Source: an uncultured Acidimicrobiia bacterium (GTDB taxonomy: Bacteria; Actinomycetota; Acidimicrobiia; Acidimicrobiales; AC-14). From it: DNA of 25,756 bases. Positions 1,846 through 24,771 of this stretch are shown piece by piece. The DNA lies in contig CAWIIV010000005.1 in NCBI GenBank assembly GCA_963836205.1, positions 1 through 25,756 of the forward strand, given 5' to 3'. The translations under genes and the position numbers were made by a program. The stretch's first letter is position 1, and every line of letters starts with the position of its first letter. The notes under the pieces are model-generated. The model saw only the letters and a program-made list of their open reading frames with translations. It did no database searches and was not told where the DNA came from.

Positions 1846-2442
1846 TCAGCTGGCGGCGGGGAGCTTTTCCACCCGGTCGCCCACCCGCACCGTCCCGCCC
1901 GTGATCACCTTGGCGTTGATCCCCCGCAGGCGCAGGCTGCGTCCCGCCCGGGAGTTCACGAAGCGGAGGGCGGCCCCACCGAAGTGAGCGGAGAACTTGG
2001 GACAGCCGAGATGGGGCTGGTCGGTGACCTCGATGACGGCCGATCCGAGGGCCAGTCGGGATCCCGGCGGCAGGTTGTCGACGCTCAGGTCGAGGTCGAG
2101 ATAGAGCTGGTCGCCGGCCAGGGCCCGCCGGTCGGGGTCGACGGCCAGCAAGGCCGCGACCCGGGAGTTCATGACGTTGAGCTGCATGTCGGGGTGCGAC
2201 GACCCGTCGGGGGTGTCGGGGCTGCCCAGCACCCGCCAGCCGTCCCCGACCAGGCCGAGGTCGGGGTCGAGCGTCCCCTCGGCCAGGATTCGGCGCGCTC
2301 CCGGCGACGGCCGGCGGACGATCAGCTCGACCCGCCCGCCGTCCGCCGGCGACCGGGCGATGTCGTCCAGGCCCGCGGCCAGCTCGTCCCTCGTCCGGTG
2401 GTGCACGGCCTGAGCTTCGCCGACCTCCCCGGGATGTGCCAC
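1846..2442 (-). CDS. MOSC domain-containing protein
   Basis: GLVGDGW, LAGDQLYLDLDLS, LGSAVIEVTDQPHLGCPKF, LRGINAKVITGGTVRVGD. Start uncertain (2406/2442/2466). Confidence 0.85.
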   Translation of the reverse strand: MAHPGEVGEAQAVHHRTRDELAAGLDDIARSPADGGRVELIVRRPSPGARRILAEGTLDPDLGLVGDGWRVLGSPDTPDGSSHPDMQLNVMNSRVAALLAVDPDRRALAGDQLYLDLDLSVDNLPPGSRLALGSAVIEVTDQPHLGCPKFSAHFGGAALRFVNSRAGRSLRLRGINAKVITGGTVRVGDRVEKLPAAS

Positions 2443-2472
2443 CGAAATACGGGTGGCCGGTAGCATGAGGGC

Positions 2473-3873
2473 GTGCCGGATCGGGCGCCGGAAGGCGAAA
2501 GTCTCGGCGTCGAGCTGCTCGGCGACGGCCTGAGCGCTCCCTGTATCGACGGTCTCCAGCGGCCCTACCTGTCCCTCGACGCGGCCGCGTCCACCAGCGC
2601 CCTGCCACCCGTCGCCCAGCGGGTCGCCGACTTCATGCCCCGGTACTCGAGCGTGCACCGGGGGGCGGGGTGGAAGTCGCAGCTGGCCACCGCCGAGTAC
2701 GAGGAGGCCCGGGCCGCGGCCCTCGCCTTCGCCGGCAAGGACGAGGCCACCGACGTGGCCATCATCTGCCGCAACACCACCGAGGCCGTCAACCACCTCG
2801 CCTACCGGCTGCGGCTGGCGCCCGACGACGTCGTGGTCACCACCGTCGTCGAGCACCACGCCAACCTCCTCCCCTGGGCCCGCCTGGCTCGCCGCCGGTA
2901 CGTGGAGTGCGGGCCCGACGGCACCTTCGACGCCGACGAAGTGGCGGCCGTCCTCGACGACGGGCCCCGGCCCCGGCTGCTGACCGTCACCGGTGCGTCC
3001 AACGTCACCGGCTGGATTCCACCCACCGACGACATCGTGGCCGCGGCCCACGAGCGGGGAATCCCGGTGCTGGTCGACGCGGCCCAGCTGGCGGCCCACC
3101 GCCCGCTTCCCGCCAGCGCCGATTTCCTCGCCTGGAGCGGTCACAAGATGTACGCCCCGTACGGCGGGGGTGTTCTGGTCGGCCCCCGGTCGACCTTCGA
3201 GACGGGCGACCCTTTCCTGGCCGGCGGGGGGGCCGTCGACCTGGTCGACCTCGACGAGGTGGTGTGGACCGACCCGCCCGAGCGGGAGGAGGCGGGCTCG
3301 CCCAACGTCGTGGGTGCGATCGCCCTCCACGCCGCCATCGACGAGCTGGCCAAGCTCGGCTGGCCCGCCATCGTCGCCCACGACGACGCCATGGCCGACC
3401 GCCTCCGCCACGGGCTGGCCGCCATCGACGGCGTGCACCTGCTGGGCCCGGCCCTGGGGGCGCCCACCCTGCCCCTGGCCACGTTCGTGGTCGACGGCGT
3501 CCACCACGCCCTGGTCGCGGCCCGGCTGAGCGCGGAGCACGCCATCGGCGTCCGCCACGGGTGCTTCTGCGCCCACCCCTACCTCCTGCGCCTGCTCGGC
3601 CTCGACGAGGGCGAGGTCGCCTCGTACCGGTCGGCCGTGCTTCGGGGCGACCGGCGCCACATCCCGGGCGCGGTGCGGGCCAGCGCCGGGCTGTCGACCA
3701 CTGCGGCCGACATCGACCGCTTCCTGGCCGCCGTAGCCGCCATCGCCGGTGGCGACGACCCGCCCGTCCCCTACGACCAGGACCCGGGGACCGGCGACTA
3801 CTGGCCCCGCACCGACGATCCCGACTGGTCGACCGCCGCCCGCCGTCCGGGAACATCCTGCGCCCGAGGCTGA
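2473..3873 (+). CDS. Cysteine desulfurase, SufS-like (aminotransferase class V)
   Basis: LDAAAST, EHHANLLPW, DAAQ, SGHKMY (PLP Lys), EAGSPN, catalytic loop GVRHGCFCAHP. Confidence 0.9.
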   Translation: MPDRAPEGESLGVELLGDGLSAPCIDGLQRPYLSLDAAASTSALPPVAQRVADFMPRYSSVHRGAGWKSQLATAEYEEARAAALAFAGKDEATDVAIICRNTTEAVNHLAYRLRLAPDDVVVTTVVEHHANLLPWARLARRRYVECGPDGTFDADEVAAVLDDGPRPRLLTVTGASNVTGWIPPTDDIVAAAHERGIPVLVDAAQLAAHRPLPASADFLAWSGHKMYAPYGGGVLVGPRSTFETGDPFLAGGGAVDLVDLDEVVWTDPPEREEAGSPNVVGAIALHAAIDELAKLGWPAIVAHDDAMADRLRHGLAAIDGVHLLGPALGAPTLPLATFVVDGVHHALVAARLSAEHAIGVRHGCFCAHPYLLRLLGLDEGEVASYRSAVLRGDRRHIPGAVRASAGLSTTAADIDRFLAAVAAIAGGDDPPVPYDQDPGTGDYWPRTDDPDWSTAARRPGTSCARG

Positions 3874-3890
3874 TACACCAGAGGGGACCC

Positions 3891-4181
3891 ATGCCCGACA
3901 CCTGCACCCATCTCGACCAGGCCGCCGCCGTCTCGCCCCACGCCGACGGGTGCGAGGACTGCCTGGCCATCGGCGGGCGGTGGGTCCACCTGCGGCTGTG
4001 CATGGCGTGCGGCCACGTGGGCTGCTGCGACAGCTCCCCCAACCGCCACGCCACCGCCCACTTCCGCAGCACCGCCCACCCCCTGATCCAGACCTACGAG
4101 CCCGGTGAGGAGTGGTGGTGGTGCTACGTCGACGAGGTCGCCTTCCTCGTCCCCGGCGCCCCCTCGTTCCACCACCCGTGA
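3891..4181 (+). CDS. UBP-type zinc finger domain protein
   Basis: CTH...GCEDC...WVHLRLCMACGHVGCCDSSPNRHATAH...WWWCYVD; GAGGGG RBS. Confidence 0.92.
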   Translation: MPDTCTHLDQAAAVSPHADGCEDCLAIGGRWVHLRLCMACGHVGCCDSSPNRHATAHFRSTAHPLIQTYEPGEEWWWCYVDEVAFLVPGAPSFHHP

Positions 4182-4185
4182 CTTC

Positions 4186-4206
4186 GACCCCGGAGCCGCC
4201 GGGGTC
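4186..4206 (+). terminator. GC hairpin just after the zf-UBP stop
   Basis: GACCCCGG-agccg-CCGGGGTC, perfect 8-bp stem, no U tract. Confidence 0.35.
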
Positions 4207-4298
4207 ACGGCCCGGCCGCCGAGCGGTTTCGGAAAGAAATCGAGGCGACTGACCGGTCTGTCTTGCATAGCGGCGCGGAACCCGCCAACATATGGGCC

Positions 4299-4345
4299 GG
4301 CGCCCTTCTCGGCTGGTCCGCCGTCAGCCGAGTGGGCGCCCTTTT
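4299..4345 (+). terminator. Long stem-loop with T tract (intrinsic terminator, possibly bidirectional)
   Basis: GGCGCCC-tt-CTCGGCTG-gtccgccgt-CAGCCGAG-t-GGGCGCC followed by CTTTT, between convergent genes. Confidence 0.65.
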
Positions 4346-4361
4346 CGCGCCCGGAGAGCGT

Positions 4362-5867
4362 TCAGGCGGGGAGGCTGATGGTGACCTCGGTGCCGACGCC
4401 GGGGGTCGACCGCAGTGCCACTGCCCCCCCGTGGAGCTCGACGATCCCCTTCACGATCACCAGGCCCAGCCCGGTGCCGGCGATGGCCAGCTCCTGGGCG
4501 TTGGACGACCGGAAGAACCGCTCGAAGACCCGCGACTGCTCGTCCTCGGGGATGCCGAGGCCGGTGTCGGCCACCACCAGCGCCACCGTGTCGCCCTGCC
4601 GGCCCACCGAGACCGAGATCCGGCCGCCGTCGGGCGTGAACTTGACCGCGTTGCTCAACAGGTTGATGAGGACCCGGTCGAGGTGCTCGGCGTCGGCGGT
4701 GACGGTCATGGCGTCGTCGGCCACGTCGACCGTGAGCTTCAGCTCCCGTCCCGACAGGGCCGGGGCCATGGCCGCCACCGCCGACTCGATCAGCAGTGGA
4801 ACCGCCACCGGCGTCAGCGTCAGCCGGATCTTGCCCGCCTCCACGCCCGACACCGTCAGCAGGTCCTCGATGCGGTTGAGGAGCCGCCGGCTGTTGCGGC
4901 TGATCACCTCCAGCATGCGGGTCTGCTGGACGTTGAGCGGCCCCGCGTCGCCGTCGCCGAGCATCTCCAGGTAGCCCAGCATGCTGGTGACGGGCGTCCG
5001 CAGCTCGTGGCTGACGCTGGACACGAAGTCGTTCTTGTCGCGGTCGAGGCGGGTCAGGCGGTCGACCACCTCCCGCTCCCGGGCCAGGAGCTGGCGCTGG
5101 AGGGCCTCGGCCGCCTCCGCCTGGTCCACCGCCACCCGTAGCTGCTCGTTGAGCTCGGCCAGCTCCACGTTGCGGGCGGCGTAGACCTCGGCCAGGAGCT
5201 GGGCCGCCTCCACCCGGACGTGCTCGGCCTCCGCCATCATCGCCTGCGCCCGCTTGGACGGCGTGATGTCGAAGCCCACGCCCTGGAAGTAGGCCAACCG
5301 GCCGGCGTCGTCGCGGATGAGGCGGGCCTCGCCCAGGATCCAGACCTCCTCGCCGTCGCGGGAGATGAAGCGCACCTCGGCCCGGAACGGCCCCCCCGTC
5401 TGCACGCCCCGGGTGAAGGCCTCGATCACCACGTCGTGGTCGTCGGGGTGGAGCTGGGAGTACCAGAGGAGGGGGTTGGTGAGCCACTCCTGCTGGGTGA
5501 ACCCGAGCACGGTCTCGATGTGGGGGCTGACGTAGACCTCGTTGTCGGCGTCGCCGAGGGCGGCGGAGAACACCACCGCCGGCACCTGTTCCACGAGGGA
5601 CTGGAAGCGGACCTCCGATCGACGCACGTTGGCGGCCAGCTGGTCGCGCTCGCTGAGGTCGGCGTCGTCGCCCGGATGGGCGGCGCCACCGTGGTGGTGG
5701 CCGGCGGTCGGCCACACGACTCGCTCCCGGTCGCCGATGCCCACCCGTCCCGGGAAGACCACCTCGGCCAGGCGGAGCATGGCCTCCAGGGCCTCGCTGT
5801 CGCCGACGGCCATCGCCGCCAGGTGCGCCTCCAGCCCGGCCACGTCGACGGGGCCGGTGTCGCTCAC
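4362..5867 (-). CDS. Cytoplasmic PAS/PAC sensor histidine kinase (HisKA + HATPase_c)
   Basis: PAS: YVSPHIETVLGF...LHPDD...DIT. H-box SHELRTP, N-box NLLSNAVKFT, G1 DTGLGI, F-box VFERFFR, G2 GTGLGL. No transmembrane segment seen. Confidence 0.93.
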   Translation of the reverse strand: MSDTGPVDVAGLEAHLAAMAVGDSEALEAMLRLAEVVFPGRVGIGDRERVVWPTAGHHHGGAAHPGDDADLSERDQLAANVRRSEVRFQSLVEQVPAVVFSAALGDADNEVYVSPHIETVLGFTQQEWLTNPLLWYSQLHPDDHDVVIEAFTRGVQTGGPFRAEVRFISRDGEEVWILGEARLIRDDAGRLAYFQGVGFDITPSKRAQAMMAEAEHVRVEAAQLLAEVYAARNVELAELNEQLRVAVDQAEAAEALQRQLLAREREVVDRLTRLDRDKNDFVSSVSHELRTPVTSMLGYLEMLGDGDAGPLNVQQTRMLEVISRNSRRLLNRIEDLLTVSGVEAGKIRLTLTPVAVPLLIESAVAAMAPALSGRELKLTVDVADDAMTVTADAEHLDRVLINLLSNAVKFTPDGGRISVSVGRQGDTVALVVADTGLGIPEDEQSRVFERFFRSSNAQELAIAGTGLGLVIVKGIVELHGGAVALRSTPGVGTEVTISLPA

Positions 5868-5885
5868 TCCGTCACCGACCCGGGG

Positions 5886-7658
5886 TCACCGGACCCCGAG
5901 CGTGGGGCCGTGGAGGGCCCGGTGCACCTTTCCCCCGCCCAGATAGAGGTGGACGCCGCAGGGCAGGCAGGGGTCGAAGCTGCGGACGGTGCGCATGATG
6001 TCGATGCCCTTGAACTGGTCGGCCCCGTTCTCCTCGAACACCGGCGATCCCGCGACCGCGTCCTCATAGGGGCCGGCGGTGCCGAACGAGTCCCGGGGGC
6101 TGGCGTTCCAGCAGGTGGGCGGGTACGGGTGGTAGTTGGCGATGCGGCCCTTGCGGATCACCATGTGGTGGGACAGGACGCCCCGTACCGCCTCGTGGAA
6201 CCCGCACGAGACGGCCTCGTCGGGCACCTCGAACGGCGTCCACACGTCGAGCCGGCCCGCGCTCACCTCCGCCATCGCCTGTTCCAGGAAGTGGAAGGCG
6301 ATGGACGCGCTGTAGGCCTGGAAGTAGGTGCGGGCCCGGTCGCGCTCGATGGTGTTCGACCACCGCGGCACCCGCCAGGTGAGCTCGGTCTCGGGTAGGT
6401 GGGCGGTGCGGGGGAGGCGGATGCGCACCGACCCGTCGCCCGGCGCGTCGACGTAGGAGGTGTGCACCCGGCCGGCCAGGGCGGTGACCCACAGCCGGGC
6501 GAGGGGGCCTCCGCCGGTGTCGAGGGCGAGATGCTCTCCGGTGCGGGCATCGAGCCACCGGGGCGACATCACCCACGTGTAGTGGCCGCCCGGCTCGAAG
6601 TTGCGCCGCTGGGGCCGGGGCGAGGTGGTCTGGTTCCAGGGATGGCGCTGGTCGACGGGGTGGCCCAGGGGGTCGTGGGTGACGAAGGTCTCCCCCTCGG
6701 CCCAGTCCTCGTAGAACGAGCTGCCGAGCAGGATCCGCATCCCCAGGTTGATCTCGACCAGGTCGGTGGTGACCAGATCGCCGTCGACCACGATGCCGGG
6801 CGTGACGAACATGTCGCGGCCCCACGAGGTCATGTGGTCGTAGCGGAAGTCGCACGTCTCCGGGTTCTGGAACGAGCCCCACGAGCCGAGCAGCACCCGC
6901 CGCCGGCCGACCTCCTCGTAACCGGGCAGGGCCTCGTACATGAAGTCGAAGAGGTCGTCGTGGAGAGGGACGATGCGCTTGAGGTGCTCGACGTACTTCA
7001 CCAGCCGCACCAGGTAGTCGTCGAAGAGCTGGACCGTGGGCACGGTGCCGACGCCGCCCGGGTACAACAGCGACGGGTGGACGTGGCGCCCTTCCATCAG
7101 GCAGAACATCTCCCGGGTGAGGCGGCTCATCTTGAGCGCCTCCAGGTACAGGGCGCCCTCCATGGGGTTGAAGGCCCGCATGATGTCGGCGATGGTGCGG
7201 TAGCCGTGGACGTCGGCGTGGGGCGACTCGGTGACCTCGGCCCGGGCCAGCACCGCGGGGTTGGTCTCCCCCACCATGCGGGCGCAGAAGTCCACCCCCA
7301 CCAGGTTCTCCTGGTAGAGGTTGTGGTCGAACATGTACTCGGCCGCCTCGGCCAGGTTGACGATCCACTCGGCCAGGTGCGGGGGCTTGATCCCGTAGGC
7401 CATCTGCTGGGCGTAGACGGAGGCGGTGGCGTGGTTGTCGCCGCAGATGCCGCAGATGCGACTGGTGATCTGGTGGGCGTCGCGGGGGTCCTTGCCCTTC
7501 ATGAACACGCTGTAGCCCCGGAAGATCGACGACGTGCTGTGGCAGCGCACCACCTTGCGGTCACGGAAGTCGATGCGGGCGTGGATGCCGAGGCTGCCGA
7601 CGATGCGGGTGATCGGGTCCCACGTCTTGTCGACCAGGTGGGGGCCGGTGTCGGTCAC
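5886..7658 (-). CDS. hhyL: Group 1h [NiFe]-hydrogenase large subunit
   Basis: WDPITRIVGSLG, L1 SRICGICGDNH, L2 SFDPCLPCGVH plus C-terminal extension. GTG start at 7658 overlaps the hhyS stop (GTGA). Confidence 0.93.
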   Translation of the reverse strand: MTDTGPHLVDKTWDPITRIVGSLGIHARIDFRDRKVVRCHSTSSIFRGYSVFMKGKDPRDAHQITSRICGICGDNHATASVYAQQMAYGIKPPHLAEWIVNLAEAAEYMFDHNLYQENLVGVDFCARMVGETNPAVLARAEVTESPHADVHGYRTIADIMRAFNPMEGALYLEALKMSRLTREMFCLMEGRHVHPSLLYPGGVGTVPTVQLFDDYLVRLVKYVEHLKRIVPLHDDLFDFMYEALPGYEEVGRRRVLLGSWGSFQNPETCDFRYDHMTSWGRDMFVTPGIVVDGDLVTTDLVEINLGMRILLGSSFYEDWAEGETFVTHDPLGHPVDQRHPWNQTTSPRPQRRNFEPGGHYTWVMSPRWLDARTGEHLALDTGGGPLARLWVTALAGRVHTSYVDAPGDGSVRIRLPRTAHLPETELTWRVPRWSNTIERDRARTYFQAYSASIAFHFLEQAMAEVSAGRLDVWTPFEVPDEAVSCGFHEAVRGVLSHHMVIRKGRIANYHPYPPTCWNASPRDSFGTAGPYEDAVAGSPVFEENGADQFKGIDIMRTVRSFDPCLPCGVHLYLGGGKVHRALHGPTLGVR

Positions 7659-8677
7659 CCGCCGGTCGGCGGGTCGTCGCCCGCGGTCCGCAGTCCCTTC
7701 GGCAGCGGCCCTCGCCACTCCGGTTCGACGTTCATCGACGCACGGGTCACGTTGCGCAGGGCCCGTACCGACCGTCCGTAGAGCAGCACCGCCGACGACG
7801 ACATCCTCGCCCCCGGGGGCTCGTCGAGGAAGGGCTGGAACTTGTCGGGGAAGCCGGGCATGGTGCAGCCGATGCACGTGCCGCCGACGTTGGCGCAGCC
7901 GCCGACGCCGTTCATCCACCCCCGCTTGCCCACGTTGCAGTCGACCACCGGTCCCCAGCACCCGAGCTTGACGATGCACTTGGACGACCCGTATTCGCCG
8001 GCGAAGTCGCCCTGCTCGTAGTAGCCGCCCCGGTCGCAGTTCTCGTGGAGGGTCTGGCCGAACAGCCACTTGGGGCGCAGGACGTGGTCGAGCGGGATCG
8101 GCGGGGCCAGCCCGGCCAGCTGGCGGACCAGGTAGAGCAGGGTCTCGGTGCAGTTGTCGGGCTGGATCGGGCAGCCGGGCAGGTTGACGATGGGCATGCC
8201 GCCCTGCGAGCGCCAGTCCCAGCCCAGGTAGTCGGCCAGGCCCATGGCGCCGGTGGGGTTGCCGGCCATGCCGTGGATGCCGCCGTAGGCGGCGCAGGTG
8301 CCCACCGCCATCACCGCCCACGCCTTGGCCGTGAGCCGGTCGACCCAGGTGGTGGTGGGGATGGGCTGGCCGGTCGCGGGGTCGGTGCCGAAGCCGGCCC
8401 AACACCCCTCCTCGTTGCCCGTCTCGTCGGGGATGGAGCCCTCGATGACCAGGATGAAGGGGTCGAGCTTGCCCGCCGCCGCGTCCTCAAACCCGGCCAG
8501 GAACTCGTCGCCCACCTCGTAGGCCAGCACCGGGTGGTGGAAACGGACGCGGGGCACACCGGGGAAGGCGCCCAGCACGAGGTCCTCCAGGCTGGGCTGG
8601 GTGGCGGCGGTCATGGCGATCGAGTCGCCGTCACAACTGAGGCCGGCGGTGAGCCACAGGACCGGCACCTGCTCCAT
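7655..8677 (-). CDS. hhyS: Group 1h [NiFe]-hydrogenase small subunit
   Basis: LSCDGDS (Asp-ligated proximal cluster typical of 1h), GTCAAYGG, PGCP, HENCDR, KCIVKLGCWGP, GGCANVGGTCIGCTMPGFPD. No Tat signal. Confidence 0.93.
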   Translation of the reverse strand: MEQVPVLWLTAGLSCDGDSIAMTAATQPSLEDLVLGAFPGVPRVRFHHPVLAYEVGDEFLAGFEDAAAGKLDPFILVIEGSIPDETGNEEGCWAGFGTDPATGQPIPTTTWVDRLTAKAWAVMAVGTCAAYGGIHGMAGNPTGAMGLADYLGWDWRSQGGMPIVNLPGCPIQPDNCTETLLYLVRQLAGLAPPIPLDHVLRPKWLFGQTLHENCDRGGYYEQGDFAGEYGSSKCIVKLGCWGPVVDCNVGKRGWMNGVGGCANVGGTCIGCTMPGFPDKFQPFLDEPPGARMSSSAVLLYGRSVRALRNVTRASMNVEPEWRGPLPKGLRTAGDDPPTGG

Positions 8678-8683
8678 GCGATC

Positions 8684-8689
8684 AAGGTA
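8684..8689 (-). promoter_or_regulatory. Putative -10 element for leaderless hhyS transcript
   Basis: TACCTT 6 nt upstream of the hhyS ATG; no Shine-Dalgarno visible. Confidence 0.45.
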
Positions 8690-8726
8690 CCCGTACCGGG
8701 GTTGGGGCAGGGAGAGCCGAACGTCC

Positions 8727-8954
8727 CTAATGACGGGCGGAGACCGGTACGGGGGCCGGGATCTCGACCCGCTCCGCGGCCCGGAGGGTGTCGATCACCA
8801 GGGTGCGGACCTCTGCCGGCGCCCGCTTCCCGCAGTAGTAGCAGCGGTAGCTGGCGACGTTGCTGTAGTGGCAGCGGCAGAACCAGAAGACACCCAGCCA
8901 GCGGGCGACCTCGCTCCATTCCTCCGCTCTCCTGACGAAGCGCCGGGTGGCCAT
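8727..8954 (-). CDS. Small zinc-ribbon protein (75 aa)
   Basis: MATRRF...WFCRCHYSNVASYRCYYCG..., i.e. W-x-C-x-C-x3-N-x5-C-x2-C, RanBP2/DZR-like. Alternative in-frame GTG at 9080. Confidence 0.65.
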   Translation of the reverse strand: MATRRFVRRAEEWSEVARWLGVFWFCRCHYSNVASYRCYYCGKRAPAEVRTLVIDTLRAAERVEIPAPVPVSARH

Positions 8955-8961
8955 GGACAAA

Positions 8962-8990
8962 CGGTCGGCCGCTGCGCGAGAGCGCTTGAG
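8962..8990 (-). promoter_or_regulatory. Sigma-28 (FliA/WhiG)-like promoter
   Basis: CTCAAG-N15-GCCGACCG ending 7 nt before the ATG at 8954. Confidence 0.5.
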
Positions 8991-9089
8991 GCCGGCGGCC
9001 GACAAAGAGCCGATCGGACTACTTCCCGGCCGTCCATGCGGTGCTGGGTGCCGCTCGACGAGGGTCAAAGGGGTGGCCACGGGCGGGTC

Positions 9090-9117
9090 CCGACGGCGCC
9101 CGGTGGCGGTCGCTTGA
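9090..9117 (-). promoter_or_regulatory. Second, weaker sigma-28-like promoter
   Basis: TCAAG-N15-GCCGTCGG ending 9 nt before the in-frame GTG at 9080. Confidence 0.3.
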
Positions 9118-9374
9118 AGAGGCGGGCCGGGGTCGTCTGCGTGACGCGCCCGTCACCGGCCAGGGGCCCGGTATTGACAAAATTGGCGCCCGATCCTGCC
9201 TGCGCTCGCGGGCCCGGCTGCGGTCATCGGTCGGCGGCCGCGTGATGGCTGCGTCATCGCAGGTCAGAGGGGATATGACTCGCTGTGAGGCGGTTCCCGT
9301 GTGGGAGGGGGGAACGCGGCCCCGACCGTGCCCCCATTGCCGGGTGGGTCGAAAAGCTCATTCGCCGTGTGTGG

Positions 9375-9403
9375 CTCAAGTCCCAAAGGGGAAATGACGA
9401 TAC
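9375..9403 (+). promoter_or_regulatory. Sigma-28 (FliA/WhiG)-like promoter
   Basis: CTCAAG-N15-GACGATAC upstream of the GAGGAG RBS and the ATG at 9433. Confidence 0.55.
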
Positions 9404-9432
9404 GGGGATGACGCCCAGAGAGGAGCGGCACG

Positions 9433-9747
9433 ATGGATGACATCGAGAGCTTGTGCCGAGGATTCCTGCAGAACGCCGCCGCCCGCCACTGGGCGGTGGG
9501 CAAGGTGGCGCCGGAAGCCCCCACGTTCGACTACCTCACCGGCTACGGCGACGGTTGGGAGGCGGGCCACGTTGCTGCCCTCGCCCTCGTCATCGCCATG
9601 ATGTCGGGCGAGTCGATGACCGGGCTGATCGAGGAAGCCGACACCCGGGCGGCGGTGGAGTCGGCCTTCCCGTTCGACGCCATCTTCGATTTCACCGACG
9701 TCGACTCGGCCTCCTCCGCCGAGTCGGCCCCGCCGAAGGCGGCATGA
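9433..9747 (+). CDS. Hypothetical protein (paralog of 24451..24771)
   Basis: GAGGAG RBS; 34/82 identities, gapless, to the 106-aa ORF at 24451..24771 (hand alignment). Confidence 0.85.
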   Translation: MDDIESLCRGFLQNAAARHWAVGKVAPEAPTFDYLTGYGDGWEAGHVAALALVIAMMSGESMTGLIEEADTRAAVESAFPFDAIFDFTDVDSASSAESAPPKAA

Positions 9748-9932
9748 TGGGCCCGGACGACGAAGTCGTCCCCTGCCCCACGTGCTGGCTGCTGGCCGAC
9801 CTGATCCCGCCCGGCGACCACGGCGGCCTCTACCGCTCCCGCTGCGCCCGGGGCCACGAGAACACGCTGGCGCCGTCGGTGCTGGCCTACCTCCTCGACA
9901 TGCTCGGCCCCGCCTTCAAGCGCTCGGCCTGA
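9744..9932 (+). CDS. Small CxxC...CxxGH protein (62 aa), putative zinc-binding
   Basis: ATGA overlap with the upstream stop; [19 protein letters not shown]...[11 protein letters not shown]... Confidence 0.7.
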
Positions 9933-9978
9933 CGCGACCCCGTCGGCGCTGATCCAGCCCCCGGGCGATGATGTCCGG

Positions 9979-10728
9979 GTGGGCGCCTTCGACGGTCGGG
10001 TGGCGATCGTCACCGGCGGCGGCTCCGGGCTGGGCCTGGAGATCGCCACCGCCCTGGCCGAGGCGGGAACGGCGGTGGTGGTGGCCAGCCGCGACGGCGA
10101 ACGGTGCGCGGAGGTCGCCTCCTCCCTGGGCGGACCGGTGGCGGCATGGGGCCTGACCTGTGACGTCACCGACGAAGGGTCGGTCGAGCGCCTGGTCGGG
10201 GCGACGGTGGAGCGCTTCGGGCGGGTCGACATCCTCGTCAACTGCGCCGGAATCAATGTCCGGGGCGCGGCCGACGAGGTGGCGGTGGCCGACTTCGAGC
10301 GCTGCCTGGCGGTCAACGTCACAGGGACGTGGCTGGCCTGCCGGGCCGCGGCCCGGCCCATGCGGGCCGCCGGCTACGGCCGCATCGTCAACCTGGCCTC
10401 GGCCCTGGGCCTGGTGGGGGCGGCCGAGCGCTCGGCCTACGCCGCGGCCAAGGGGGCGGTGGTGCAGCTCACCCGGGCGCTGGCGGTGGAATGGGCCGGC
10501 ACCGGCGTCACCGTCAACGCACTGGCCCCGGGACCGTTCCTCACACCCCTCAACCAGGGCGTCGCCGACTCGCGCCGGGTGCGGGCCTTCCTCGACCACG
10601 AGGTACCGCTGCACCGCTGGGCCCGGCTGGACGAGATCCGGGCCGCGGCCCTGTTCCTCTGCTCGGAAGGGTCCTCGTACACCACGGGGACGGTGGTGTC
10701 GGTCGACGGCGGGTGGGTCGCCCACTAA
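9979..10728 (+). CDS. SDR family NAD(P)-dependent oxidoreductase
   Basis: [12 protein letters not shown], catalytic S...YAAAK, VNALAPG, VDGG. Confidence 0.93.
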
Positions 10729-12196: not shown

Positions 12197-13612
12197 ATGG
12201 CTATGGGCGTAGGGATCGCGGAGCTGCGGGAGTCCTTGAGTGGGTATGCCGCCGGCTTCGACGCGGCCGTGCTGTCGGCGGTGCAGGCCGCGGTGGTCGT
12301 CGACGAGGCGTCCCGGATCGAGAAGATCGCCGCCACCGTCAAGGCCCTGGCCGCGGCCCGGGTGGCGGATGCAGGGACGTGGCGGGCCGAGGGCGATCGT
12401 TCGGCAGCCCACATGCTGGCCCGGCGCACGGGCACCAGCGTGGTCCAGGCCGCGGCCGCCCTCGACACCGCCCGCCGGCTCGACGCATTGCCGCAGACGT
12501 CGGCGGCCGCTCGTCGGGGTGAGCTGTCGGCCGAGCAGGCGTCGGCGATCGTCGACGCCGCCTGTTCCGACGCCGAGGCCGAGAGCCGATTGCTCGATGC
12601 GGCCCGGCGCTCGCCCCTGGTCGAGTTGCGGGTGCAGTGCGCCCGCACCAAGGCCACCGCCCACGTCGACACCGAGGCCCGCCGTCGGCGCATCCACCAA
12701 AGGCGGTCGCTGCGCTCCTACACCGATTCGGAGGGCGAGTGGCATCTCCACTGCCGCGACAACCCCGAGGTGGGCGCCCGCATCATGGCCGCCCTCGAAC
12801 CGATCCGAGAGGCGATCTTCCGCCGGGCGAGGGCCGAGGCCCGCCACGAAGCGCCCGACGCCTACGCCGCCGACGCCCTGGCCGAGATGGCCCGCCGGTC
12901 AGGTGCCGGCGAAGTCGCCGGGATGCCGCCCGGGGCCGGCGGAACCACGGGGGACGACGGGCCGATCGGGTTCGGCGAAACCGATGGGGCGAGCGGGGTC
13001 GACGGGAATGACCAGACTCGTGCGCCCGACGGGCAGGTCGACGTCGACCGGGCCCTCGGAGCCGAGCGCGTCGCCGTGGCGGGTGACCGGCCCGTCCGGC
13101 AACGGGCGCCGGTGCCGCGGGTGGGTCCGCCGAAGATCATCGTGCGGGTCGACATCGAGGCACTGTTGCGAGGCTTGCCGACCGAGGGGGAGGTCTGCGA
13201 GATCGCCGGGTTCGGGCCAGTGGCGGTGTCCGCGGTGCGGGAGATGATCGACGCCGACGACCCCTTCCTCACCGCAGTTGCCACCCGGGGCCAGAAACTT
13301 TCGGAGTGGCCCATCTGGGGCGGCGGCCCAACGCCTTGCAGCAGACGGCCCTCCAGTTGGCTGTACCCGAGCTGCGCCAACGAGGCCTGCAGCGCCCAGG
13401 CCCGCCTCGACTACGACCATCGCGTCGACTGGTCCCGCACCCACTTCACCGTGCTCGACCTGCTCGATCGCCTCTGTGGGCACTGCCACACGCTCAAGAC
13501 GCGGCAGAACTGGTCCCTGGTCGAGGGCCGGGGCAAACGGGCGCTGGTCCCACCCGAGGATCGGCGGCATCCGAGGAACGCAGTCGAGCCGAGGGTGAAC
13601 GACCCGCCGTGA
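12197..13612 (+). CDS. DUF222 / HNH endonuclease-signature protein (13E12-repeat-like)
   Basis: N-terminal DUF222-like region (RRGELSAEQASAIV, AYAADALAEM, VRVDIEALLRG...CEIAGFGPV). C-terminal CxxxxC...DH...LCGHCHTLKT. A 19-codon segment appears transiently out of frame. Confidence 0.8.
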   Translation: MAMGVGIAELRESLSGYAAGFDAAVLSAVQAAVVVDEASRIEKIAATVKALAAARVADAGTWRAEGDRSAAHMLARRTGTSVVQAAAALDTARRLDALPQTSAAARRGELSAEQASAIVDAACSDAEAESRLLDAARRSPLVELRVQCARTKATAHVDTEARRRRIHQRRSLRSYTDSEGEWHLHCRDNPEVGARIMAALEPIREAIFRRARAEARHEAPDAYAADALAEMARRSGAGEVAGMPPGAGGTTGDDGPIGFGETDGASGVDGNDQTRAPDGQVDVDRALGAERVAVAGDRPVRQRAPVPRVGPPKIIVRVDIEALLRGLPTEGEVCEIAGFGPVAVSAVREMIDADDPFLTAVATRGQKLSEWPIWGGGPTPCSRRPSSWLYPSCANEACSAQARLDYDHRVDWSRTHFTVLDLLDRLCGHCHTLKTRQNWSLVEGRGKRALVPPEDRRHPRNAVEPRVNDPP

Positions 13613-24450: not shown

Positions 24451-24771
24451 TCAGGCCGGGTCGGAGGGGTCGCCCGGGTCGGCGGTGTCGACCGCCTCCA
24501 TGCCCGTCATGTGGAGGTCGAAGGGGAAGGCGTTCTCCACCTGGGCCTGGGCCCGGGCCTCGTCGAGGATCTTGCTGGGGGACTCCCCCGTGACCAGGCC
24601 GAGCATGAGGGCGGCGGTGGTGAGCTGCCCGGTGAGCTGGCCTTCGGCGTAGCCGTTGCGGTAGTCGACCGTCTCCACCTCGGGCGCCGACTGCGACATC
24701 GTGTACTCACGCGCCCCTGCCCGCTGGAGGATGCTGCGGCACATCATCTCGATTTCCTGCAACGGCTCCAC
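24451..24771 (-). CDS. Hypothetical protein (paralog of 9433..9747)
   Basis: GGAGG RBS; shares IExxCRxxLQxAxAR, APExxTxDYxxGYxxG, GES and VExAFPFD with 9433..9747. Confidence 0.85.
   Translation of the reverse strand: MEPLQEIEMMCRSILQRAGAREYTMSQSAPEVETVDYRNGYAEGQLTGQLTTAALMLGLVTGESPSKILDEARAQAQVENAFPFDLHMTGMEAVDTADPGDPSDPA

Follow-up and report, generated by a model that had tools for sequence, protein, structure and literature searches.

We analysed a stretch of 25,756 nucleotides (nt) from an uncultured Acidimicrobiia bacterium (hereafter the window), in which the genes hhyS and hhyL for the small and large subunits of a [NiFe]-hydrogenase are followed on the same strand by a gene for a soluble PAS histidine kinase. 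Judged by their nearest solved structures and their motifs, both subunits are group-1h-like, and the small subunit comes from a widespread lineage, tied to kinases, whose probable role is the sensing of hydrogen or of redox state. Our preferred reading, in which we place a little better than even confidence, is that the module is a 1h-derived sensor, analogous to group 2b but arisen inside group 1h and no member of group 2b.

A putative hydrogenase operon with an adjoining kinase

The three genes run along the minus strand from 8677 to 4362 in the order hhyS, hhyL, kinase (Table 1). The GTG start of hhyL overlaps the TGA of hhyS as GTGA, and 18 nt separate the hhyL stop from the kinase start. 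An earlier note on this DNA had described this layout of hhyS, hhyL and a soluble PAS kinase, and it was confirmed by the open reading frames (ORFs), the Pfam domains, the overlap, the short gap and hydropathy analysis.

The note had also reasoned that an adjacency unique to this genome would speak against a sensor. The same hhyS-hhyL-kinase order was found in 11 other Actinomycetota metagenome-assembled genomes (MAGs), at estimated hhyL-kinase gaps of -25 to 73 nt. Nine of these came from a search seeded with the kinase, which yielded 80 loci with HhyS and/or HhyL detected by tblastn in 26 of them, and two came from a search seeded with HhyL. As the layout recurs in 11 other genomes, the adjacency is far beyond chance.

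Three Pfam domains of the kinase scored above their cut-offs, namely PAS_3 (residues 111-197), HisKA (278-344) and HATPase_c (392-500). The SHELRTP, NLLSNAVKFT, DTGLGI and GTGLGL motifs, which correspond to the H-box and the N, G1 and G2 boxes, are all present and mark the protein as a HisKA-type kinase. Kyte-Doolittle analysis detected no N-terminal hydrophobic or membrane segment; the only peak in the protein (1.85) is the G2 box at residue 460, within HATPase_c.

The small subunit falls into a kinase-associated clade

When the two subunits were compared with the Protein Data Bank (PDB), the top match of HhyS was 5aa5_A, HofK (520 bits, the next match scoring 140 bits), and that of HhyL was 5aa5_C (1010 bits, the next scoring about 160 bits). 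The original assignment to group 1h is thereby borne out, with 5aa5 as the best match for both proteins. Huc (group 2a, 7utd) scored 117 bits with HhyL and 113 bits with HhyS, and no group 2b structure stood among the PDB matches of either subunit, so that neither sequence was placed in group 2b by this comparison.

HhyS has no signal peptide, as expected of group 1h, and its N-terminus opens at the conserved LW.TAGLSCDGDS. The ligands for three iron-sulphur (FeS) clusters are all kept in the window protein, and all 11 Cys/His ligand columns were invariant across 12 kinase-linked rows, 77 canonical rows and 49 rows of orphan HhyS, the product of Acidobacteriota hhyS genes without a large subunit of their own (hhyS'). 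Canonical HhyS ends in EPKWRH..ELTTGY, and the LTTGY tail, a feature observed in this alignment and no published criterion of group 1h, was present in 72-75 of 77 canonical rows. It was a gap in 11 of the 12 kinase-linked rows, including that of the window, and the canonical tail residues occurred in at most 10% of orphan rows.

Phylogenetic analysis separated these proteins in the same manner. An IQ-TREE phylogeny of 60 HhyS rows set 27 canonical sequences apart from 19 orphan, 12 kinase-linked and 2 Planctomycetota sequences (ultrafast bootstrap [UFBoot] 99, Shimodaira-Hasegawa-like approximate likelihood ratio test [SH-aLRT] 94), and this split was recovered in 100% of 200 bootstrap trees. 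A FastTree phylogeny of 140 rows gave the same division (77 versus 63 rows, SH-like support 90). The canonical HhyS of the window's own genome lay on a long branch on the canonical side, and the orphan Acidobacteriota genes shared the clade of the window HhyS. The idea that a 1h paralog was recruited as a sensor, first raised in the earlier note, thus gains support from the placement of the small subunit in a distinct kinase-associated clade.

The large subunit is intact and evolves faster than its canonical counterpart

HhyL keeps the RICGICGDNH and DPCLPCGVH motifs with all four NiFe cysteines, and 20 residues follow the last His of CGVH, so that the C-terminal extension is retained. The protein carries TSRICGICGDNH and SFDPCLPCGVH, which we take to be the L1 and L2 signatures of group 1h; both were identical across 91 aligned HhyL sequences save for clade-specific neighbouring positions. 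Kinase-linked HhyL formed a clade of its own (support 100), sister to Myxococcota enzymes, with 16 substitutions at columns where conservation among the remaining 79 rows is 95% or more. One example is the replacement of F63 by Q, V or I immediately ahead of the first Cys motif.

All three genes are under purifying selection among near relatives, with omega values of 0.07-0.16 for hhyS, 0.12-0.25 for hhyL and 0.31-0.40 for the kinase. In three near relatives, omega for HhyL was 0.16-0.25 in the kinase-linked form versus 0.05-0.11 in the canonical form, and between the same pairs of genomes HhyL identity was 87-93% for the kinase-linked versus 96-99% for the canonical protein. The kinase-linked subunits therefore diverge faster than the canonical subunits of the same genomes.

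A canonical hhy cluster is present in the same genome

A search for a second, canonical hhy-hyp cluster elsewhere in the genome had been suggested at the outset, and one was found. Another hhyS-hhyL pair lies on contig C6 and is followed by genes for NifU-like, DUF5947 and DUF6084 proteins (identified by Pfam), a 540-amino-acid (aa) ORF and a HycI-type protease; hypC, hypD, hypE and hypF are on contig C22. HycI and HypD each occur once in the genome. The window subunits are 67% (HhyL) and 62% (HhyS) identical to these canonical paralogues.

The usual clustering of group 1h genes with accessory genes was not seen in the window, which holds no gene for NifU-like HhyE, DUF5947, DUF6084 or the protease. 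Similarly, no match to NifU-like, DUF5947, DUF6084 or HycI was detected in the flanks of any of the 11 other kinase-linked loci. A second HhyL, 66-68% identical, is encoded in each of the five kinase-linked genomes tested, and tblastn of the region 3' of this gene detected NifU-like and DUF5947 proteins in all five and DUF6084 in four of the five short loci.

The kinase N-terminus and PAS domain are conserved across phyla

Ahead of the PAS domain, the kinase has a two-helix motif at residues 9-37 (LE..LA.M...EA.E.L.RLAE.VFP), which is recognisable in kinase-linked Actinomycetota, Acidobacteriota and Myxococcota and in a Rokubacteria locus. An AlphaFold2 (AF2) model of residues 1-222 placed helices at 9-22 and 24-37 with a predicted local distance difference test score (pLDDT) of about 58-68. 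The PAS core (residues 87-201) is highly conserved, and motif and PAS domain together are kept across four phyla. By tblastn, residues 1-250 were 42-59% identical to hhy-adjacent PAS domains of Planctomycetota and Myxococcota and 37-49% identical to those of Acidobacteriota. When the PAS model was used for a fold search, the only matches were generic ones to PAS, LOV and FixL proteins, from which no cofactor could be inferred, and NCBIfam models gave no match above cut-off for the eight proteins searched. Co-folding of HhyS with kinase residues 1-222 and three 4Fe-4S clusters scored 0.00, which is no answer and counts neither way.

The stretch GHHHGGAAH at kinase residues 56-64 had been proposed as a site that docks the hydrogenase or binds Ni. 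It was absent from all 12 aligned kinase relatives, and in the AF2 model it lies in a low-confidence linker (segment 41-60, pLDDT below 50). Because the stretch is missing from the 12 relatives and falls in a non-conserved linker, we rejected it as a conserved Ni-binding or docking element; the conserved feature of this region is the two-helix motif instead.

Orphan small-subunit genes adjoin the same kinase family in Acidobacteriota

The HhyL-seeded search returned 80 loci, mostly from Acidobacteriota. A homologue of the kinase N-terminus and PAS domain was present in 52 of them, 45 of which also had a regulator with REC and GerE domains; 26 loci had neither kinase homologue nor regulator, and two, at contig edges, had the regulator only. 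The Acidobacteriota order is orphan hhyS', PAS kinase, LuxR-type regulator and then canonical hhyS-hhyL-NifU-DUF5947-DUF6084-HycI, and in one such locus (L100) hhyS', kinase and regulator abut or overlap.

A reverse search seeded with the Acidobacterial kinase of L100 gave 481 matching stretches. Among the best 80 of these 481, some of them on contigs already seen, hhyS' lay directly upstream in 78 (one of the others was cut by a contig end and one had none), the regulator was present in 78, and canonical hhyS and hhyL followed downstream in 73 and 72, respectively. The full hhyS'-kinase-regulator-hhy set was found in an isolate, Tunturiibacter psychrotolerans X4BP1 (L248). Each of the five orphan-bearing genomes searched had one evident 1h-like HhyL gene, in the canonical locus, and three of the five had hydrogenases of other classes.

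The same PAS family occurs near hhy genes in Myxococcota, Planctomycetota and a Rokubacteria locus, where its outputs are SpoIIE, HisKA_2 or GAF-HK-REC. We observed a PAS_3-SpoIIE (PP2C phosphatase) protein near the hhy cluster of a Myxococcaceae MAG (L040:5212-7788), and a PAS_3-HisKA_2 kinase beside HypB and a REC-hybrid kinase in Sorangium cellulosum So ce26 (L039:5548-9538). In the Rokubacteria MAG, a 1048-aa PAS_3x2-GAF-HisKA-HATPase-REC protein (L024, 5551-8694) shares the N-terminal motif of the window kinase (51% over residues 1-208). Out of frame, either within this gene or just ahead of it, a stretch of 54 residues (L024:5717-5878) is 56% identical to the N-terminus of HhyS and may be a decayed hhyS'. 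A Gemmataceae MAG (L102) is unusually arranged: one strand carries an orphan hhyS' and a PAS gene, the opposite strand carries, 3.5 kb off, a lone hhyL with no adjoining hhyS, and the end of the locus is occupied by a further hhyS-hhyL pair.

Deeper-branching loci and the region upstream of hhyS

Five deeper-branching kinase-linked loci differ from the window in their signalling parts. A CheY-like REC gene lies directly upstream of hhyS in all five, and the kinase is a hybrid with REC-Hpt in four, whereas the fifth (L093) is truncated where its contig stops. The two deeper loci scanned, L018 and L020, also have a MerR-type gene in divergent orientation. The subclade of the window is without the CheY-like and REC-Hpt parts and has in their place an ORF of 75 aa with four cysteines.

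This ORF, which was overlooked in the earlier note, has a GC content at third codon positions of 0.91 and was found at 70-87% identity in six loci from five of the six near-relative genomes (two of the loci, L013 and L092, are the same contig). It was not found in L017 nor in the deeper subclade, and it has no Pfam match. It may be the first gene of the operon. The non-coding stretch ahead of it is also conserved and is possibly a promoter, operator or leader; an Rfam scan of 8600-9500 gave no match. A promoter scan of 3800-10000, of a kind ill-suited to high-GC Actinomycetota, detected no sigma-70-like site, and the same limit applies to the promoter and terminator scan that found nothing between hhyL and the kinase. 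The sole terminator-like site in 3800-10000 (8907-8891, minus strand) falls within the conserved 75-aa ORF, probably by coincidence. From the arrangement of the genes we infer that they are co-transcribed.

Table 1. Features of the hydrogenase-kinase locus, in window coordinates.
Feature	Position	Strand	Basis or description
hhyS, putative kinase-linked sensor-type group-1h small subunit, 340 aa	7655..8677	-	ORF, Pfam Oxidored_q6 and NiFe_hyd_SSU_C
hhyL, group-1h-like large subunit, 590 aa	5886..7658	-	Translation, Pfam NiFeSe_Hases
Soluble histidine kinase, 501 aa	4362..5867	-	Two-helix motif, linker, PAS_3, coiled coil, HisKA, HATPase_c
Two-helix motif of the kinase	5757..5843	-	Orthologue alignment
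GHHHGGAAH in non-conserved linker	5676..5702	-	Alignment, AF2
PAS core of the kinase	5265..5609	-	Pfam PAS/PAS_3
75-aa ORF with CxC-X12-CxxC	8727..8954	-	49 nt upstream of hhyS; upstream-region alignment
Conserved non-coding stretch AGTAGTCCGATCGGC...CTCAAGCG...CCGACCG	8955..9025	-	Precedes the 75-aa ORF; alignment of six upstream regions

Sensor or enzyme

If the module is a sensor, it might work as follows. The canonical hhy/hyp loci would lend maturation factors and their single protease to a cytosolic hydrogenase formed by HhyS and HhyL. H2 oxidised at the NiFe site would reduce the three [4Fe-4S] clusters of HhyS, whose tail-less lineage would always be partnered with this PAS-kinase family. 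The kinase may dock on HhyS through its N-terminal two-helix motif and PAS domain, and its autophosphorylation would then respond to redox changes in the FeS relay. From the kinase, the phosphoryl group would pass to a response regulator encoded outside the window, with the tuning of catalytic hydrogenase expression as the likely end effect. We infer that the kinase docks, that H2 is what it responds to and that catalytic hydrogenase expression is the target.

Several observations weigh against a sensor. HhyL has its C-terminal extension and its full active-site motifs, as in a catalytic enzyme, and it groups with Myxococcota enzymes whose loci hold accessory genes. In two Planctomycetota loci, accessory genes (NifU-like and HycI in L095) accompany a small subunit that belongs to the putative sensor clade, so that membership of this clade does not by itself exclude catalysis. 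The trees are unrooted and sample only loci found with the window's own proteins. Deeper relatives have REC-Hpt and CheY-like parts that the lineage of the window kinase has lost, and no cognate response regulator was found near the kinase among the ORFs scanned or read up to 13612; a tblastn search of the whole genome with the L018 REC gene and with the REC-Hpt portion of the kinase from L018 likewise gave no match on the window contig. Finally, in an even sample of the class with at most six candidates scored per genome, the kinase N-terminus was found in none of 400 other Acidimicrobiia genomes at E<=1e-40, and the Actinomycetota hydrogenase-kinase form is therefore rare.

The strongest alternative, which we consider unlikely yet ahead of the others, is that the window encodes a second catalytic isoenzyme that shares the canonical accessory proteins, with a PAS kinase that senses another cue (O2, a redox cofactor or the energy state) and regulates the enzyme or is co-regulated with it. 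The intact NiFe motifs, FeS ligands and C-terminal extension would all suit such an enzyme, as would purifying selection; regulators often adjoin their targets, and the Planctomycetota and Myxococcota loci do combine accessory genes with a nearby PAS protein. However, an isoenzyme leaves unexplained why some 50 Acidobacteriota loci have an hhyS' without a large subunit abutting the same PAS-kinase family, why the window HhyS clusters with these orphans and not with catalytic HhyS, and why the canonical tail was lost. The faster evolution of the kinase-linked pair relative to the canonical pair of the same genomes also argues against it.

A second alternative, to which we give distinctly less credence, holds that HhyS senses redox state through its FeS clusters and not H2. 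It would equilibrate with the electron-acceptor pool or O2 and report cellular redox poise to the kinase, with HhyL of the Actinomycetota form needed only for folding or stability or supplying a minor H2 input. The retention of all FeS ligands agrees with this, and the Acidobacteriota orphans have no dedicated 1h large subunit, a single HhyL being present in five of five genomes. Nevertheless, those orphans could pair with that single HhyL, and the Actinomycetota keep a dedicated and constrained HhyL with its NiFe ligands across 12 genomes. That the adjacency is fortuitous or an assembly artefact is scarcely credible: the assembly is MAG-like and holds three near-identical copies of the locus, but the same gene order stands in 11 independent assemblies and the association recurs in other phyla.

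Extending the preferred reading of a 1h-derived sensor beyond the window, it is conceivable, and we suggest it only tentatively, that one lineage of 1h small subunits serves as a two-component input that senses H2 down to atmospheric levels. It would work with its own HhyL in Acidimicrobiia, and as an orphan HhyS' that time-shares the catalytic HhyL in Acidobacteriota. If so, one active site would supply respiration or, alternatively, a PAS kinase with a LuxR regulator that switches the hhy operon. The specific regulator that has been missing for the main biological sink of atmospheric H2 would then lie at hundreds of soil Acidobacteriota loci, and H2 sensing would have arisen independently of group 2b.

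High-affinity 1h hydrogenases are viewed as enzymes of starvation whose substrate is ever-present. A 2026 commentary (PMC13289019) calls the signals that control them unknown. A concrete candidate for this control is the conserved set of genes found directly ahead of the hhy operon at at least 78 Acidobacteriota loci, for a putative sensor derived from a hydrogenase, a PAS kinase and a response regulator; the full hydrogenase-kinase version is present in 12 Actinomycetota genomes. The module is genetically testable, cultured strains such as T. psychrotolerans X4BP1 included. According to the literature, an extra hhyS is also carried by Acidobacteriaceae bacterium KBS 83, Edaphobacter aggregans and Pyrinomonas methylaliphatogenes.

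Assembly and gene neighbourhood

The window is one entire 25.8-kb contig (C5) of the source assembly, which is MAG-like (4.05 Mb in 25 contigs, 72% GC, 88.6% complete); the Acidimicrobiia placement agrees with the relatives found by our searches. Three other contigs are about 99% identical to parts of the window, namely C4 (window 1-20179), C8 (14720-25756) and C3 (1-9904), and C4 and C8 jointly tile all of it. The hydrogenase-kinase locus is thus also present on C3 and C4 at about 99% identity, giving three near-identical copies, most simply explained for C3 and C4 as strain haplotigs. Since the assembly contains such haplotig-like duplicates, the copy number of the locus is uncertain.

The 3' end of the operon faces a convergent zf-UBP gene, and the genes divergent from it on the upstream side are a small ORF, a short-chain dehydrogenase/reductase (SDR) and a threonine dehydratase. 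The genes 3' of the kinase for a zf-UBP protein, a class-V aminotransferase and a MOSC protein (window 1849-4181) are syntenic in near relatives. Four relatives (L012, L013, L014 and L017) have about 1.4-1.9 kb of extra DNA between kinase and zf-UBP gene compared with the window. In L012, the only one read, this DNA holds an opposite-strand ORF of 471 aa (7704..9119) that is absent from the window and, judged by eye, resembles a pyridine-nucleotide-disulphide oxidoreductase.

A hypothetical family of about 105 aa without Pfam match has copies at window 9433-9747 (plus strand) and 24451-24771 (minus strand) and at C8:143779-144033 of the same genome, with 37-68% identity among the paralogues. 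One copy lies divergently upstream of the operon and is kept at 72-78% identity in six loci from five near-relative genomes. The plus-strand gene at 12197-13612, whose DUF222-like product has a Cys/His C-terminus of HNH-like type, behaves as a repeated or mobile gene: C19 holds one near copy (97% over 1.5 kb) and C11 another (90%).

Comparison with known systems

The window module resembles the group 2b systems, HoxBC-HoxJ-HoxA of Cupriavidus necator and HupUV-HupT-HupR, in that a soluble two-subunit [NiFe]-hydrogenase stands beside a soluble PAS kinase and a separate catalytic hydrogenase is present in the same genome. It differs from them in that its subunits are of the 1h type. Group 2b large subunits lack the protease-removed C-terminal extension, and the small subunits have a long kinase-binding extension; the window HhyL, in contrast, keeps its C-terminal extension, and its HhyS tail is short and variable. 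Group 2b clusters include an NtrC-type response regulator (HoxA/HupR), whereas the regulators in relatives of the window locus are LuxR-type or form a CheY and Hpt relay. The parallel with group 2b sensors originally drawn for this locus accordingly stands for the layout, an adjacent soluble PAS kinase, and for the presumed function, and falls for membership of the group, given the 1h-type sequences and the extension kept by HhyL. The hydrogenase-kinase logic of group 2b is set out in sections of PMC13289019 and PMC12319191 and in the HydDB table.

In its Cys motifs, its FeS ligands and the lack of a signal peptide, the window enzyme is like canonical 1h hydrogenases and the R. eutropha AH enzyme (5aa5). 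Unlike canonical 1h loci, it has no NifU-like, DUF5947, DUF6084 or protease genes beside it and has a kinase in the operon; its HhyS is without the LTTGY tail, and its HhyL has the 16 clade-specific substitutions. As in putative sensory group 2c and [FeFe] group C in HydDB, a hydrogenase is tied to signalling domains and the role is deduced from context only; unlike those groups, the lineage of the window is that of a high-affinity aerobic scavenger. In the HydDB entries consulted, kinase-linked sensors are listed in group 2b and [FeFe] group C1 only.

Our literature searches turned up no report that connects a 1h hydrogenase with a kinase or response regulator, and the words 'kinase' and 'regulator' are absent from the main text of Giguere et al. 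2020 (PMC8027828). The portion of Eichorst et al. 2018 (PMC5900883) that treats these genes gives one large-subunit copy per strain and does not mention a histidine kinase. For two Acidobacteria and P. methylaliphatogenes, Giguere et al. did report, in the main text, an extra hhyS located ca. 3,600 bp upstream of the hhy genes, the expression of which they measured. Orphan hhyS has thus been noticed already; the signalling genes around it and the complete hydrogenase-kinase arrangement apparently have not. The extra hhyS of those Acidobacteria (PMC8027828, main text) falls into the same small-subunit clade as the window gene and is followed by the same PAS-kinase family. Unlike the window hhyS, it has no dedicated large subunit, and a LuxR-type regulator and the canonical hhy operon come directly after it.

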